From Patescibacteria group bacterium (GTDB lineage Bacteria; Patescibacteriota; Microgenomatia; Levybacterales; UBA12049), in contig JBBTTO010000003.1 in NCBI GenBank assembly GCA_038064195.1, positions 244,428 to 292,591 on the forward strand: a DNA stretch of 48,164 nt, in the 5' to 3' direction. The notes beneath the pieces were generated by a model that did not search any database, had not been told where the DNA came from, and worked only from the letters and a program-made list of their open reading frames with translations. The translations under genes were made by a program, and so were the position numbers. Positions 9,140-19,272 of this stretch are shown here, piece after piece. Each line of letters opens with the position of its first letter. The stretch's first letter is position 1.

Positions 9140-10054
9140 TTAAGTGCCTCTGAAAAGTTTATGGAACGGGTGGTAATGGATGCGTTTTTCAGCCACGTAA
9201 ATTCCCAAGAAGACGAAAAATGCACCCGTCAGGAAAGCTGGTGTGATGTTCTCATGGAGGAGCGGGACTGCGACGAGTACGGTGACCAGCGGATCGACAT
9301 AGAGGAACACCCCGATTTCACTGGCCTTAATATGTTTGACCCCGAAATTATAGAATAAATAGCCAAAAATTGACGTAAAGATAGCTCCGAAAACAATCCC
9401 GATGATCGCTTGCTCATTTAAAAGACTGAGGATATGGTGTTGTGACGATTCCATCAGGAAAAAAGGAAAGAAAATAACTGTTGCGTATGCGAAAAGATAA
9501 AACGTTACGGTCACTGATCGCAGGTGGGTCACATAGTTTTTTAGTAGCAGGGTATAACCCACAAAGGTCAGTGTTGACAGAAGAAAAAGCAGATTGCCGA
9601 GGATTGTTCCGTCCAGACCCTCATCGATAATCGGGCGGAGGATGATGATTGCGACTCCCAAAAGACTGATCACCGTACCGAGGATAATTCTGGTCCTGAC
9701 ATTTTCTTTATAAAAGAAGATTGAGGAGGTGATCAGAAATATCGGAGCGGCTGTGGCGATGACTGAGGAGTTCACGCTACTGGAAGTTGTCAGGCCAAAA
9801 AGGAGTAAGCCTATATGGAAGAAAAAACCGATGACTGCCAGGACAAATAGTGACACAGCATCGTGCTTTGTGATTTTCAGACGATGCAGTGTCAAGGGCA
9901 GGAGGATCAGTGAGGCGAGGAAAAAACGGAGAAAGGCAAAAGTAAATGGCGGTATTGATTCAAGCGACCAGCGGAAAATAGGTATACTTGCTCCCCATAT
10001 GATATTAGTCCCGATGAGTGCCAGGACAGCCAGGTGATATTTACTAAAGCGCAT
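9140..10054 (-). CDS. EamA/DMT family transporter
   Basis: IIWG, FLRF and two 5-TM repeats; about 10 TM helices. Confidence 0.9.
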   Translation of the reverse strand: MRFSKYHLAVLALIGTNIIWGASIPIFRWSLESIPPFTFAFLRFFLASLILLPLTLHRLKITKHDAVSLFVLAVIGFFFHIGLLLFGLTTSSSVNSSVIATAAPIFLITSSIFFYKENVRTRIILGTVISLLGVAIIILRPIIDEGLDGTILGNLLFLLSTLTFVGYTLLLKNYVTHLRSVTVTFYLFAYATVIFFPFFLMESSQHHILSLLNEQAIIGIVFGAIFTSIFGYLFYNFGVKHIKASEIGVFLYVDPLVTVLVAVPLLHENITPAFLTGAFFVFLGIYVAEKRIHYHPFHKLFRGT

Positions 10055-10116: not shown

Positions 10117-11316
10117 TTAGTCTTTAGATAACAGCTTACAAGCTTCCTCAAAGGTAACCTGTTTTTGCTCACGCTTTCTTAGATCTTTAAGTGTAACTTT
10201 TTCTTTTTTTACTTCCTCAGGTCCGATGACAACGACATAGGGAATACCTTTTTGGTCAGCGTACTTGAGTTGTTTTTCCATTTTAGCGTTCGGGTCAAGA
10301 TACAGTTCAGTGGCTATGCCCTCAGCCCGTAATTTGTAGCAGGCCTCAATTGACTGATCCAGTAATTCAGGGGAGAAAACAGTAACCAGGATCTGTGTTC
10401 CGGCCAGATCCTGTGGGAAAAGATTTAGCTCTGTCATCGCATCGACCACCCGATCAAATCCGAAAGCGAAGCCTACAGCGGGAACCTGCCTGCCGGCGAA
10501 CATCCCGACTAAATTGTCATAGCGTCCGCCGCCGCCGACTGATCCGACAGTGTAGCCCTCAATCTCTACCTCAATAATAATACCGGTATAATAGTCAAGA
10601 CCCCGAGCGAGTGTCGGTTCAAATTTAATCCTGTTTTTATCCACTCCAAATTCTTGAGCACTGACCAAAATTTGTTTGAGATTCTCAGGAAGTGTTGCTC
10701 CCATCAGTTCATCCAGTTTTTCGCCTTTTACACCAAGTAGCTCTAGCTCTTTTTTAACCGCATCCGCTCCGATTTTTTTCAATTTATCAATCGCGATAAT
10801 AGCTTTCGGCGAGAGATCCGCAAAAAGAGTTCGGTCATTAACAAGGAGGGTAAAGCTTTTAAATCCGAGAGCCTCAAATGAGTCATTAATGATTGCAAGT
10901 ATCTCAGCATCGGCAAAGACGCTATTCGTCCCGACTGTGTCGATGTCACACTGCAGGAACTCCCGAAAGCGGCCACGTTGCGTATTCTCAGCCCGCCAGA
11001 CCGGCTGAATTTGATATCTTTTAAAGGGCAAGGGGAGTTCGTTTTGATACTGAGCAACTACCCGCGCGAGAGGCACAGTCTGGTCATACCGCATTGCCAC
11101 ATTTCGACCACCGTTATCTTTAAAACGATACATGAGCTTGTCGCCCTCTTCACCGTATTTACCGTTCAGTATTTCTTCGTATTCAAGGGCCGGAGTCTCA
11201 AGAGGCTCAAAACCATAAGACGAGAACACGTCTTTAAGCGTGCTTATCACATACTGTCTTTTTCTTGCAGTGCCGGGTAAAAAGTCCCGGAAACCTTTTA
11301 ACGTTTGTACTAACAT
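10117..11316 (-). CDS. hisS: Histidine--tRNA ligase
   Basis: KGFRDFLP, RYDQTVP, RGRFREFLQCDID, ARGLDYYTG and GGGRYD motifs; anticodon-binding domain. Confidence 0.97.
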   Translation of the reverse strand: MLVQTLKGFRDFLPGTARKRQYVISTLKDVFSSYGFEPLETPALEYEEILNGKYGEEGDKLMYRFKDNGGRNVAMRYDQTVPLARVVAQYQNELPLPFKRYQIQPVWRAENTQRGRFREFLQCDIDTVGTNSVFADAEILAIINDSFEALGFKSFTLLVNDRTLFADLSPKAIIAIDKLKKIGADAVKKELELLGVKGEKLDELMGATLPENLKQILVSAQEFGVDKNRIKFEPTLARGLDYYTGIIIEVEIEGYTVGSVGGGGRYDNLVGMFAGRQVPAVGFAFGFDRVVDAMTELNLFPQDLAGTQILVTVFSPELLDQSIEACYKLRAEGIATELYLDPNAKMEKQLKYADQKGIPYVVVIGPEEVKKEKVTLKDLRKREQKQVTFEEACKLLSKD

Positions 11317-11321
11317 ATTCT

Positions 11322-12041
11322 TTATCTTAACATGAATAATACCCGATCTGGGTTTTCCAAATCAAGGACATCATTCACTATCGTATCAGTGACCTTAATC
11401 TCTCTTTGTTCACGATCTATCTCTGCTTGTGGTCCCATCAGCTGAGTCATATTGAATCTGTCAGCGACAGCTATCATAGGAGACTGTGCATTTGTTCTCA
11501 TAATCAGCGGAAGTCCGGCCCATCGAGCAACGTTCACGAGGGAGCCACTCAGCTTGTTACTATACCCTTTGCCACGGCTATTAGAATCAACCCCGCATTC
11601 GGAAAAGTAGAAGAATTTACTGTCAACGCCATTTTGCGCTAATAATTCACTCATACCACCTCTCATTTCGGGAGTGCGATACTTATCAAAGCTAAACTGA
11701 TTTGGCGACTGATAAGGAAATCCCCACGAGAAGCCAACAACCTCAGTGCCTTCTTTCATAGTAAATCCCTTTGCATCTGTCCTCCCAAGCTCTTTTTTAA
11801 TGTAGCCTATTGTTTCAGCAAGAGGGTATGCTTCAGCAAGTTTTGACTTAAAGCATTCACAATCTTGCCCGACTTCGGTCTCGGCGCCAAAGAATTTCCC
11901 GCAGCCACACCGAGTGACTTCATTCCACGGCTCTCCAGCGAAAACGCTTGCATAGAGCTTGGCTACGTTGGTCACTTCATTTGTTAGGAAAGGTATAAAG
12001 CGTTGGGGCTCATCCTGTCCTAATCTTTCACGATCAATCAT
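11322..12041 (-). CDS. GNAT-family N-acetyltransferase with a CxC...CxC putative Zn insert
   Basis: VFAGEPWNE, VVGFSWG and YFSECGVDSNSRGKGYS (motif A); overlaps the upstream M20 gene by 4 bp; SD GGAGGTGA. Confidence 0.7.
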   Translation of the reverse strand: MIDRERLGQDEPQRFIPFLTNEVTNVAKLYASVFAGEPWNEVTRCGCGKFFGAETEVGQDCECFKSKLAEAYPLAETIGYIKKELGRTDAKGFTMKEGTEVVGFSWGFPYQSPNQFSFDKYRTPEMRGGMSELLAQNGVDSKFFYFSECGVDSNSRGKGYSNKLSGSLVNVARWAGLPLIMRTNAQSPMIAVADRFNMTQLMGPQAEIDREQREIKVTDTIVNDVLDLENPDRVLFMLR

Positions 12042-13198
12042 TTTTGTTCACCTCCTTTCAGTTCAAGAATTATCTTTTTATAGATGTTTTCAAGTACTGG
12101 AAGTTGGTAGAGTGGAATATTTTCATCTTCCCGGTGTACTGTTGTTCCGTCACCGGCACCAAAAGTACAGCAGGGAGTATTCGGTAGAGCTTGGGCGAGA
12201 AGCTGAACATCAATAAATCCTCTTTTACCAGAGTCAGTCCAGCTGAGTAAGGTTTCCGTGCTAATCACACGAGCGACATTATTCAGTTGCTCTTTTGGAG
12301 TAATCCATGCTCCTAAGTCATGTCTGGTTGTTATCGAGTCAAGGGTGAGCCCTTCATCAGCGATGAATCCTTTGAGTAGAGATGATACTCTTTCAGCATT
12401 CAGTGTAGGTATGCTTGGACGAATATCTAAGACAAACTCCGCAAAATCAGGAATATTATTTCCTTGTTTACCTAAGATTAACTCTGAGGAGCTCTTTTTT
12501 TGTAAGAGCCCGCCTTGCATATAGGCTAAGTTAATAGTTGATCTGCCCAATTCTTGGCTACGGCAGAACTTCTGAAAATATTTTTGGAGCCTTCTGATCA
12601 CGGCATAGCTACGGGTTATTGCATTTACGCCGCTGAGAGGATTTGAGGCATGTCCTGTTTTTCCTTTTACACGTACTGTTAGTTCAATCAAGCCTCTGCA
12701 ACCGTTTCCGAGAGTTAGATCGTTTCCATCACCTGACAGAATAAGTTGAGGAGAAATTTTGCTTTTATACTCACGAATGAAGGCTTTCATTCCTGCAAAG
12801 TCATATTCCTCATCAATATAAAGGAGTGCTGCAATGCCTTTTGTTTTGCCGATCTTTTCCCACGCAGTGAGAAATGCAGCTATGTTTCCTTTCATGTCAG
12901 CAGTTCCAAGTCCGTACAGTTTTTCCCTGCTAATGAATGAGCGAGTGTTAAGTCGGTTTTGTAAAAATTTTGGTTGGACTGTATCAAGATGTCCAAGATA
13001 CAGAAGGCGAGTGGGATACCCATCGGAGATCAAGATATTGTACCTGCCGTTGAGAATGGGTTGTTTGGTTACCTGCCAATTCGGCACCTTACTACAATAT
13101 CCCACGACAAAATCAGCTATGCCAATCTCATTACAAGAACTGTCAACGAATGACTTAATAGAAATCAATTTTTTTGTAAGTTCTAATGTTTTCTCCAT
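12038..13198 (-). CDS. M20 family metallohydrolase (ArgE/DapE-like)
   Basis: GHLDTV, YGLGTADMKG, DEE, GKTGHAS and C-terminal H-x-x-DE motifs. Confidence 0.88.
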   Translation of the reverse strand: MEKTLELTKKLISIKSFVDSSCNEIGIADFVVGYCSKVPNWQVTKQPILNGRYNILISDGYPTRLLYLGHLDTVQPKFLQNRLNTRSFISREKLYGLGTADMKGNIAAFLTAWEKIGKTKGIAALLYIDEEYDFAGMKAFIREYKSKISPQLILSGDGNDLTLGNGCRGLIELTVRVKGKTGHASNPLSGVNAITRSYAVIRRLQKYFQKFCRSQELGRSTINLAYMQGGLLQKKSSSELILGKQGNNIPDFAEFVLDIRPSIPTLNAERVSSLLKGFIADEGLTLDSITTRHDLGAWITPKEQLNNVARVISTETLLSWTDSGKRGFIDVQLLAQALPNTPCCTFGAGDGTTVHREDENIPLYQLPVLENIYKKIILELKGGEQK

Positions 13199-13250
13199 AA
13201 AAAAACTCCCGTTCTTTACACACCAAAAAATGATGTGTAAGGAACGAGAG
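13199..13250 (-). terminator. T-box-controlled intrinsic terminator that also sequesters the SD of the M20 gene
   Basis: 20-bp stem (19 pairs including GU) followed by U7 ending at the AUG; GGGAG lies in the 3' arm, 7 nt from the AUG. Confidence 0.88.
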
Positions 13251-13420
13251 GGTACAAAAAAAGGACCTCCCGCGGTCCCATCCTTATTGTCTAATTATTA
13301 CTAATCAGACCTCTTTATGGCGACTCCGCGTGTGCGACATCGTCTGTTGTCTTTTACGGTTCAACCTCCGTAGAGCATTTTGGCTCTCAGCTCCTGGATC
13401 GTGACTCCAGTCAGCGCTTT
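13199..13420 (-). ncRNA. T-box riboswitch, His-specific (CAC), ultrashort Stem I
   Basis: K-turn Stem I (13420-13389) with apical loop GUCACGA, Stem II, Stem IIA/B pseudoknot, Stem III, antiterminator AAGGA-UGGGACC-GCGGGAGG/CCUCUCGU-UCCUU, and terminator; hisS is downstream. Confidence 0.88.
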
Positions 13421-13440
13421 ATACGTTAAATTGTCTGTCT

Positions 13441-13468
13441 ATTATACCAGATAGGACAATTATGTCAA
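13441..13468 (-). promoter_or_regulatory. Consensus sigma70 promoter driving the T-box leader
   Basis: TTGACA-16-TATAAT on the minus strand. Confidence 0.85.
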
Positions 13469-19126: not shown

Positions 19127-19188
19127 GTTCCGCGCTTGTCAAGCAAGCGAGCTCGGCCTTTCAGGCCTCCGCTCCACATGACCAAAGG

Positions 19189-19272
19189 TGGGCAAGGAGG
19201 GACTCGAACCCTCATAGTCATTATAACCAATAGTTTTTGAGACTATCGCGTATACCATTCCGCCACTTGCCC
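19189..19272 (-). tRNA. tRNA-Leu(CAA)
   Basis: Acceptor GGGCAAG/CTTGCCC, D-arm GCGGAATGGTATACGC, anticodon stem ATAGT-CTCAAAA-ACTAT, long variable arm, T-arm GAGGGTTCGAGTCCCTC, discriminator A; followed by CCT, so CCA is not fully encoded. Confidence 0.93.

Follow-up and report, generated by a model that had tools for sequence, protein, structure and literature searches.

The leader and its apparent operon

The element described here lies on the minus strand of a 48,164-nucleotide stretch of DNA, called the window below, from a Patescibacteria genome of the Microgenomates group (GenBank assembly GCA_038064195.1, contig JBBTTO010000003.1, positions 244,428 to 292,591). A promoter and an untranslated leader occupy positions 13199-13468 and are followed, in this order, by genes for an M20-family deacylase, a 239-aa protein, histidyl-tRNA synthetase (hisS; protein HisRS), and an EamA-family transporter. 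An earlier note on this DNA had read the leader as a histidine-specific T-box riboswitch with an ultrashort Stem I. The computational evidence given below makes it probable that the leader is a compact tRNA-His-specific T-box that controls the deacylase gene, the second open reading frame (ORF), and hisS, possibly together with the transporter gene. The coordinates of the features are collected in Table 1.

The host genome comprises 1.08 Mb in 5 contigs. The nearest relatives of its HisRS in public genomes share at most 69% identity and come from metagenome-assembled genomes labelled Patescibacteria, Daviesbacteria, Levybacteria, Woesebacteria, Gottesmanbacteria, or Microgenomates, which bears out the earlier suggestion of a host resembling the candidate phyla radiation (CPR). 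DNA of the stretch recurs in contigs of groundwater metagenomes, several of which may be its source.

The top NCBIfam match of the M20 protein is the ArgE/DapE subfamily, at 113 bits and below the cut-off of 217.6. The 239-aa ORF has no Pfam or NCBIfam match at 1e-3, and its match to GNAT is sub-threshold only (E 0.09). Neither protein has a homologue among the other His-operon genes examined, and neither has a counterpart among the genes that lie between His leaders and hisS in relatives (leader loci and genomes of relatives are given L and G numbers, respectively). The adjacency of hisS and EamA recurs in L032, L035, L047, and L092 (tblastn), and an ORF with an EamA-like N terminus, judged by eye, follows hisS in L116, L108, L109, L102, and L097. 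The leader, the M20 gene, the ORF, and hisS form an apparent operon, in which hisS would be co-transcribed with its two upstream neighbors. The hisS gene that the earlier note had placed downstream is present there, but as the third gene; it is the M20 deacylase gene that adjoins the leader.

The promoter, kink-turn (K-turn), Stems I, II, IIA/B, and III, antiterminator, U7 tract, and GGGAG named in the earlier note were all recovered where it had put them; hairpin X and the T1 hairpin were not among the elements that it listed. The region holds three promoter-like matches, against 0.6 expected, and TTGACA/TATAAT-like pairs also stand upstream of the homologous leaders that were printed. Stem I as a whole is a 17-nt hairpin, with a 5-bp helix (13410-13406/13398-13394) under a 7-nt apical loop (13405-13399), and has no specifier internal loop, AG bulge, or distal T-loop platform. 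The K-turn below it pairs AGC (13418-13416) with GCU (13391-13389) and has tandem G.A pairs at 13412-13411 and 13393-13392. Stem II seems to leave no room for the usual S-turn, and the Rfam alignment deletes most of the GAA...AGUA loop region of the model; the S-turn seems to be absent from this compact Stem II.

The antiterminator as drawn has an energy of −13.7 kcal/mol, and its AAGGAUGGGACCGCGGGA aligns with the T-box core of the Rfam model RF00230. The T1 hairpin in its loop (−9.7 kcal/mol) is terminator-like by a simple scan and belongs to the tRNA-free minimum-free-energy structure of the discriminator region. The 3′ strand of the antiterminator (13251-13239) and the 5′ arm of the terminator (13250-13231) overlap at 13250-13239 and are mutually exclusive. 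The earlier description of a 20-bp terminator holds for the hairpin, the U7, and the mutual exclusion, but the pairing is interrupted by one C.A mismatch, which is kept in 14 of 15 homologues. This main terminator was not called by the simple terminator scan, although fold and alignment do show it; we attribute the miss to the C.A mismatch, because the scan demands a U-run that starts within 2 nt of an uninterrupted stem. A Shine-Dalgarno (SD)-like GGGAG (13210-13206) lies within the 3′ arm of the terminator, with 7 nt between it and the AUG at 13198. For the 251-nt leader the folding energy is −87.9 kcal/mol (z = −6.05), a value reached by none of 200 shuffles. The core features of a T-box are present: a UGGN bulge in an antiterminator, a specifier, a discriminator match, a pseudoknot, Stem III, and a competing terminator.

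Table 1. Coordinates of the leader elements and the genes behind them (positions in the window)
Feature	Positions	Strand	Details
Sigma-70-type promoter	13441-13468	-	−35 TTGACA 13468-13463, 16-nt spacer, TG-extended −10 TATAAT 13446-13441; 12/12 matches
Stem I domain	13389-13418	-	K-turn AGC-GCU-GA ... GA-GCU; 5-bp CUGGA/UCCAG; loop GUCACGA
Specifier CAC (His), followed by purine G13400	13401-13403	-	Complementary to the genome's tRNA-His(GUG)
Stem II	13372-13387	-	AGAGC/GCUCU, 5 bp; conserved 6-nt loop CAAAAU
Stem IIA and pseudoknot IIB	13346-13371	-	IIA ACGG 13371-13368/CCGU 13359-13356; IIB GUUG 13365-13362/CAAC 13349-13346
Hairpin X (extra)	13319-13344	-	Internal U.G/G.A/U.G motif; −8.6 kcal/mol; treated as an insertion by RF00230
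Stem III	13289-13310	-	GNRA-type loop GUAA; −7.9 kcal/mol
Antiterminator	13239-13285	-	A1 AAGGA 13285-13281/UCCUU 13243-13239; bulge UGGGACC 13280-13274; A2 GCGGGAGG 13273-13266/CCUCUCGU 13251-13244
T1 small hairpin and U7	13256-13279	-	GGGACC/GGUCCU inside the antiterminator loop, then U7 13262-13256; sequesters the UGGG bulge
Terminator	13199-13250	-	5′ arm 13250-13231, loop U5, 3′ arm 13225-13206, U7 13205-13199; −26.4 kcal/mol
M20-family (ArgE/DapE-like) deacylase, first gene	12038-13198	-	386 aa; Pfam Peptidase_M20 and M20_dimer
239-aa protein, no recognised family, second gene	11322-12041	-	Start overlaps the M20 stop by 4 nt
hisS (histidyl-tRNA synthetase), third gene	10117-11316	-	Pfam tRNA-synt_His (E 1.3e-44) and HGTP_anticodon; 5 nt past the preceding stop
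EamA-family transporter	9140-10054	-	Pfam EamA; conserved neighbor of hisS

Conserved structure and predicted tRNA specificity

At gathering thresholds Rfam reports no T-box in the window, the sole match being a tRNA-Leu(CAA) gene (19187-19272, minus strand). In a permissive scan of 461 nt, RF00230 matches 13237-13423 on the minus strand over the full model with 49.2 bits (E 6.5e-10). This falls short of the gathering score of 93, as the earlier note had forecast for a canonical model. The alignment covers the T-box core and has 6 nt in place of 75 distal Stem I positions of the model, in keeping with the missing AG bulge and distal T-loops that the note had remarked upon. At E ≤ 0.01, RF00230 matches 23 of 61 related genomes, with a score above the cut-off in 1 of the 61. 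The printed leaders found in this way span the range from canonical long to very short Stem I, and three share the loop and bulge of the window leader.

The conservation of the structure was explored with three MAFFT alignments, of 12 compact decoding modules with several specificities (A2), of 15 discriminator domains (A6), and of 14 His-type leaders (A7). A6 and A7 draw on 19 full-length His-type leaders; those with large insertions (L040, L053, L054, L077, L080, L092, and others) were omitted from one or both. Alignments A1, of full leaders, and A3 were not used, since in them MAFFT had put the Arg sibling or the 3′ strands of Stem I out of register. Pairing was compared with a slide control, in which the 3′ partners were shifted, and a shuffle control was also used. 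A covariance model, R1, was built from the A2 modules; the best 60 of about 90 new family matches to it, and the best 20 at class level, were fetched for analysis.

The helices of A2 are 87.5% paired, against 27-42% when slid, with 12 of 18 pairs changing on both sides; the K-turn stem and Stem I covary across specificities. In A7, the 36 pairs of the K-turn stem, Stem I, Stem II, IIA, IIB, hairpin X, and Stem III are 96.0% paired (27-42% slid), and 21 of them change on both sides. Together with the conserved CAC loop, this covariation is what the earlier note had proposed to look for in an alignment of homologues. Pairing is complete (100%) in the K-turn stem and Stem I; changes on both sides occur in 2/5 pairs of Stem I, 4/5 of Stem II, 4/4 of IIB (96% paired), and 5/6 counted pairs of Stem III. 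IIA is 98% paired, and hairpin X, at 99%, is highly conserved. The 13-nt GGAGUCACGAUCC, which contains the specifier loop, is invariant in all 14 aligned His leaders. In the discriminator domains of A6, the terminator is 94.3% paired (46-51% slid) and shows two-sided changes in 5 pairs and 20 cells, and the antiterminator (helices A1 and A2) is 97.4% paired (50-67% slid; 15 leaders).

Hairpin X and Stem III show further regularities. The interior U.G/G.A/U.G of hairpin X is invariant, and Stem III carries the loop AGUAAU or AGCAAU, that is, a GNRA-type cap (GUAA/GCAA), in most of the 14 leaders. The UGU/GAG hairpin X is also found in Pro- and Trp-type leaders and in the long-Stem-I leader L003. 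A tetraloop-receptor contact or a contact with the tRNA by hairpin X and Stem III is conceivable.

The R1 module was found in 64 of 151 sampled family genomes and in 56 of 151 class genomes, a count that includes the genome of the window and G388, which is flagged unpublished (55 of 150 without G388). In a phylum-wide sample it was found in 8 of 151 genomes, one of them that of the window and the others mostly with weak matches. The compact T-boxes predicted from these modules are a class-wide set with several specificities, and the window leader is one member of it.

The specificity of the leaders was assessed by tabulating loop class against T-box bulge for 87 modules, 79 from the family and its relatives and 8 from upstream of hisS. 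All CAC-loop leaders with a readable T-box have the bulge UGGG (21/21), compared with 1/58 of the other leaders. The regular expression for the T-box missed at least one real variant (L192, bulge UGGGC), so that counts of "no T-box" are upper bounds, and the one for the loop class is crude, binning as Trp a leader (L094) that looks like Pro. The lone exception, L056 (G118), has UGGG and GGUCC-U6 with a Stem I loop, UUCCCCA, that contains no His codon; a tRNA-His gene lies directly behind its terminator.

The tRNA-His(GUG) of the genome has an encoded G-1, C73, and CCA, and it is the only C73 tRNA among the 47 predicted. This agrees with the match that the earlier note had proposed between the bulge G and C73, with the pairing of C73 to G-1 as a caveat. 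The discriminators of the genome also fit the bulges of the sibling leaders (Arg A73, Cys U73, Pro A73, and Trp G73).

Sibling leaders of the Arg type, with the loop GUCGCGA or CUCGCGA and the bulge UGGU, lie ahead of argH at all three loci examined for it (L015, L058, and L034, the last with an argH-carA-carB-argF operon). In the Cys type, GUUGCGA and UGGA are followed by cysteine synthase. CCY loops with UGGU mark the Pro type, which stands before proS, ornithine cyclodeaminase, ornithine aminotransferase, or a CsaA-like tRNA-binding protein, and UGG loops with UGGC the Trp type, before trpS. Loop, bulge, and gene thus switch together over His, Arg, Cys, Pro, and Trp, which is the specifier switching that the earlier note had envisaged. 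Its assignment to His is upheld by the CAC-UGGG association, the his genes downstream, and the invariance of the loop.

Other triplets of the loop were considered as specifier, namely ACG (Thr, with the G of UGGG in a G.U wobble with U73 of tRNA-Thr) and GUC (Val). The tRNA-Thr genes of the genome do carry U73, which makes the wobble formally possible, and A-C-G followed by A fits the usual codon-plus-purine pattern. Nearly every CAC-loop leader, however, is followed by his genes or tRNA-His, and no thr or val gene is among the downstream genes identified. The reading register is fixed by the Cys sibling, because only positions 3-5 of its loop GUUGCGA (UGC) fit both the UGGA bulge and the cysteine synthase gene. 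In the MAFFT alignment, moreover, CAC, CGC, and CCY share three columns, and in each case the next two positions are a purine and the one that closes the helix. As for Val, tRNA-Val(GAC) has A73 after correction of the 8-bp drawing of ARAGORN; in the ARAGORN drawings tRNA-Phe(GAA) likewise has A73 and tRNA-Ser(ACU) has G73. We consider a Thr or Val register very unlikely, and CAC is retained as the specifier of a tRNA-His-specific T-box.

A decaying relic of a canonical T-box, one that no longer senses tRNA and serves as a leaky terminator or a constitutive leader, could likewise lack the Stem I platform, score below the Rfam cut-off, and be patchily distributed; in some relatives the T-box bulge is gone entirely. 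Such decay is difficult to reconcile with compensatory changes in the helices on either side of a specifier loop and bulge that themselves do not vary over many genera and families, with the clean co-switching of codon, discriminator, and gene over five specificities, and with a promoter of perfect consensus. We regard a relic as very unlikely, and a tRNA-responsive T-box is the reading followed below.

Downstream genes, predicted output, and proposed mechanism

The genes behind this type of leader were examined for 15 His-type leaders that had been found without reference to hisS and had at least 1 kb of downstream sequence. Ten are followed by hisS (the window leader, L027/L032, L035, L037, L042, L047, L053, L055, L077, and L092) and four by histidine biosynthesis genes (L010, hisG, at 61 bits and below the cut-off; L021, hisD and hisC; L036, hisG and hisD; L080, hisD). 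The remaining leader, L054, has neither hisS nor a histidine biosynthesis gene within 3 kb. Between leader and hisS, relatives (L037, L053, L054; L032, L055, L097, L108; L042, L077) have a uridine-phosphorylase-like gene, ORFs with weak similarity to phosphoribosyltransferases, a weakly histidine-racemase-like ORF, and large ORFs of no known family.

In 10 of 16 class-level loci (L175-L178, L181, L183-L185, L190, and L192) and in 3 of 23 other loci (L036, L056, and L162), the leader is immediately followed by a tRNA-His(GUG) gene in the same orientation. There the riboswitch would regulate the gene for its own ligand at the level of transcription; in a literature search of limited extent, no account of T-box control over tRNA genes turned up. 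The window genome has its tRNA-His gene elsewhere, on contig C2, and the genome searches with RF00230 and R1 report no other match there.

The output of the switch could be transcriptional, translational, or both, and the earlier note had proposed a transcriptional and possibly also a translational one. A mainly or exclusively translational switch, as in the actinobacterial ultrashort T-boxes, would make the hairpin an SD sequestrator and U7 the spacer between SD and AUG. Such an arrangement is in line with the start codon abutting the U-tract in 11 of 18 His-type leaders, including that of the window, where GGGAG(G) is the only SD-like sequence, and with the translational output of all ultrashort T-boxes in the available portions of the published accounts (PMC7583486; bioRxiv 10.1101/2023.02.28.530422). 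On the other hand, the hairpin with its U6-7 has the form of an intrinsic terminator, and the U6-7 tract right after it is invariant in the 15 aligned leaders. The hairpin and U-tract are retained unchanged in the other 7 of the 18 leaders, in which the start codon is 10-105 nt past the terminator; because of this distance, and because 5 of the 7 have an SD-like sequence of their own, the hairpin cannot sequester their ribosome site. In 13 loci the element precedes a tRNA gene, which is not translated, and nearly all non-His compact leaders also end in a hairpin and U-run.

We therefore consider a switch that is mainly or only translational unlikely. The invariant U-tract, and the retention of the hairpin with distant start codons and before tRNA genes, lead us to read transcription termination as the predicted primary output of the tRNA-His T-box, with secondary masking of the ribosome site plausible in the window. 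Of the dual output that had been proposed earlier, the terminator form is conserved; the translational part is plausible for the window leader and is not general, as the 7 of 18 leaders illustrate.

The T1 hairpin is a further element of the discriminator region. A U-run is found at the T1 offset in 13/16, 5/5, and 10/10 His-type leaders of three sets, and L054 has an equivalent of the hairpin with different pairing (ACCGC/GCGGU). Non-His leaders lack a hairpin and U-run at this position, L016 and L009 having only U5 in the loop of the A2 helix. The predicted T1 hairpin with its U-run is a class feature of His leaders. It may act as an anti-antiterminator, a pause site, or an early terminator, and would be pre-empted by tRNA-His bound to UGGG.

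In the mechanism that we propose, transcription would start at the consensus promoter, and the nascent leader would fold its K-turn and 5-bp Stem I hairpin. The 7-nt, anticodon-loop-like cap would present CAC, with the short Stem II and the IIA/B pseudoknot packed against Stem I. Uncharged tRNA-His(GUG) would pair with the leader twice, through its anticodon at CAC and through its free C73-C-C-A terminus at the UGGG of the T-box bulge. This pairing would stabilize the antiterminator (A1 and A2), and the polymerase would read into the operon. With no tRNA, or with His-tRNA-His, the bulge would be captured by the GGGACC/GGUCCU hairpin, the 19-bp terminator with U7 would form, and transcription would stop. 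On full-length transcripts the same terminator hairpin may also mask ribosome binding, since the AUG is preceded by no SD-like sequence other than the GGGAG of that hairpin's 3′ arm. The steps of tRNA binding, charge sensing, termination, and readthrough are predicted here from sequence and folding.

Several observations weigh against this reading. The leader has no Stem I elbow-docking platform; transcriptional T-boxes generally need one for fast tRNA capture before the polymerase reaches the terminator, according to the text of PMC7583486 available to us. Only one same-genus match of RF00230, in G007, proved to be of the His type, and the compact module was found upstream in 8 of 80 related hisS loci, a patchy distribution. 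The antiterminator is nearly invariant, with 1 pair that changes on both sides, and 90 of 500 shuffles reach its observed score; because of this invariance its covariation says little. The slide and shuffle controls somewhat overstate the case, because they use related sequences and structures that were modelled on the window itself, and the counts, too, come from samples of mutually related genomes. In tRNA-His, C73 already pairs with G-1, and the fourth pair of the bulge has to form in competition with it; for this reason TBDB ignores discriminator matching for His, as far as the available text of PMC7778990 describes it. In the window, hisS sits two genes away from the leader and has, just upstream, a 9/12 promoter-like site (11365-11336) and a weak hairpin of terminator-like form (11366-11342). 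Terminator- and promoter-like matches of this kind arise at chance frequency within the operon.

Known T-boxes, variant leaders, and implications

With the canonical class I (transcriptional) T-boxes (RF00230), which include His-specific ones, the window leader shares the K-turn, a purine after the specifier, Stem III and the IIA/B pseudoknot, an antiterminator that carries the UGGN bulge and is in competition with an intrinsic terminator, and targets among aminoacyl-tRNA synthetase and amino-acid genes. Canonical T-boxes have a specifier internal loop, an AG bulge, and a distal double T-loop platform; the window leader has none of these and carries its codon in the cap. It further differs in its 5-bp Stem II, seemingly without a place for the S-turn, in hairpin X before Stem III, and in the T1 hairpin and U-run within the antiterminator.

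The ultrashort ileS T-boxes of Actinobacteria, known from Mycobacterium and Nocardia structures, share the short Stem I over a K-turn, the specifier in the terminal loop, the lack of elbow contact, Stem II, and the IIA/B pseudoknot, as described in the accessible parts of PMC7583486 and bioRxiv 10.1101/2023.02.28.530422. In these accounts they have a translational SD sequestrator and serve ileS and tRNA-Ile only, whereas the window leader has a hairpin with a U-tract, His specificity, and a host in the Patescibacteria. Of the published features of the ultrashort class, the short Stem I is present here; translational output and ileS are not, the leader having CAC, UGGG, and his genes instead. 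The glyQS glycine T-boxes are also reduced and also terminate transcription, but they retain a long Stem I with its platform and dispense with Stem II and IIA/B, the opposite of what is observed here.

The T-box-like hisD leader of Corynebacterium glutamicum (Jung 2010, as reported in the available text of PMC3896937) is likewise short, with proposed tRNA-His sensing, a CAU/CAC specifier, UGGA, and histidine genes. In that account it has neither Stem II nor Stem III, its T-box sequence is poorly conserved, the 196-nt leader of strain AS019 has its specifier in a bulge, and the status of the leader is called ambiguous. The window leader, in contrast, has the full T-box core with pseudoknot, Stem III, and UGGG bulge. 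As far as the literature found goes, an ultrashort Stem I joined to a terminator, with targets other than ileS, is unlike the published accounts of ultrashort T-boxes; it is set apart by the descriptions in the reviews found. No publication tying T-boxes to Patescibacteria or the CPR was found in a literature search whose reach ended short of TBDB entries and supplements.

Several relatives carry variants of the compact leader. Five class-level loci (L182, L184, L185, L190, and L194) and three hisS loci (L100, L162, and L169) keep the CAC decoding module and the extra hairpin, and next have only a hairpin and U-run nested in an outer helix, with no recognizable UGGN bulge. Rfam reports no T-box at E ≤ 0.1 in the five class-level loci, which were scanned. 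These bulge-less CAC-module leaders are often ahead of tRNA-His and hisS; hisS follows L182, L185, L190, and L194 (tblastn) and the hisS-anchored L100, L162, and L169. A UCCCC motif recurs 3′ of the hairpin. Such leaders could be degenerate T-boxes, or could join a different expression platform to the same tRNA-binding module.

Smaller still are two Gly leaders of about 100 nt, L030 (G022) and L020 (G018), in which a K-turn and a 3-bp Stem I with the cap CUUGGCAA (GGC, then A) are joined by a purine-rich linker to a UGGA T-box and a terminator. They have neither Stem II nor pseudoknot, folding gives no evident Stem III, and both precede glycine-tRNA ligase (603 and 589 bits, respectively). A 2024 paper describes Stem III in all T-boxes identified so far.

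The only other T-box match in the genome of the window is L002 (contig C2:339306-339446, plus strand; 26.9 bits; bulge UGGU). Its hairpin, GUCUA-CCGCAG-UAGAC, marks a second Arg-type (CGC) leader class in relatives, and it precedes a GNAT acetyltransferase gene and another M20 peptidase gene. From the contexts of the two leaders, both T-boxes of the genome would control an M20 enzyme beside a GNAT or GNAT-like ORF. In the non-His leaders L003, L002, L006, L023, L024, and L026, Stem III is followed by 5-8 U upstream of the T-box sequence, so that it resembles a signal for pausing or termination. In L047, L053, L055, L077, L080, L021, and L108, the upper loop of the antiterminator holds variable hairpins, tens of nt in size, inserted after GGUCC and the U-run. 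These recall the insertions in helix A2 of translational and staphylococcal T-boxes, as the sources available in part describe them.

Taken further, these comparisons allow a wider and tentative proposal, to which we give clearly less than even weight. The Microgenomates-group class may hold a miniaturized T-box repertoire (His, Arg, Cys, Pro, Trp, and the Gly leaders of about 100 nt) that terminates transcription without an elbow-docking platform. The T1 hairpin and U-run of the His class might then serve as a pause site or an initial checkpoint, an anti-antiterminator giving more time for the tRNA to be captured; hairpin X and the GNRA-capped Stem III might add tertiary support, and in many relatives the leader might drive the gene of its own ligand, tRNA-His.

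The line taken in the reviews, as far as their accessible text goes, is that an ultrashort Stem I is tolerated only with a slow, reversible decision, as it is in the actinobacterial ileS leaders, which act on translation. A family of ultrashort T-boxes that is conserved, covaries, and has intrinsic terminators and at least five specificities would challenge this line on the platform and, if true, would mean that elbow docking is no requirement for co-transcriptional tRNA sensing. Standard models under-detect the T-boxes of Patescibacteria; this applies to Rfam and probably, by the design of its pipeline, to TBDB, which passed sequences with truncated Stem I to its class II (translational) model according to the available text of PMC7778990. 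At about 220 nt here and about 100 nt for Gly, these leaders would be very small natural tRNA sensors for mechanistic and engineering work. To our knowledge, RNA-based regulation in Patescibacteria is almost undescribed. The genes that appear to be regulated, namely the M20 deacylase, ORFs without a family, histidine-racemase-like and nucleoside-phosphorylase-like genes, and tRNA-His, hint at histidine supply in these reduced genomes.

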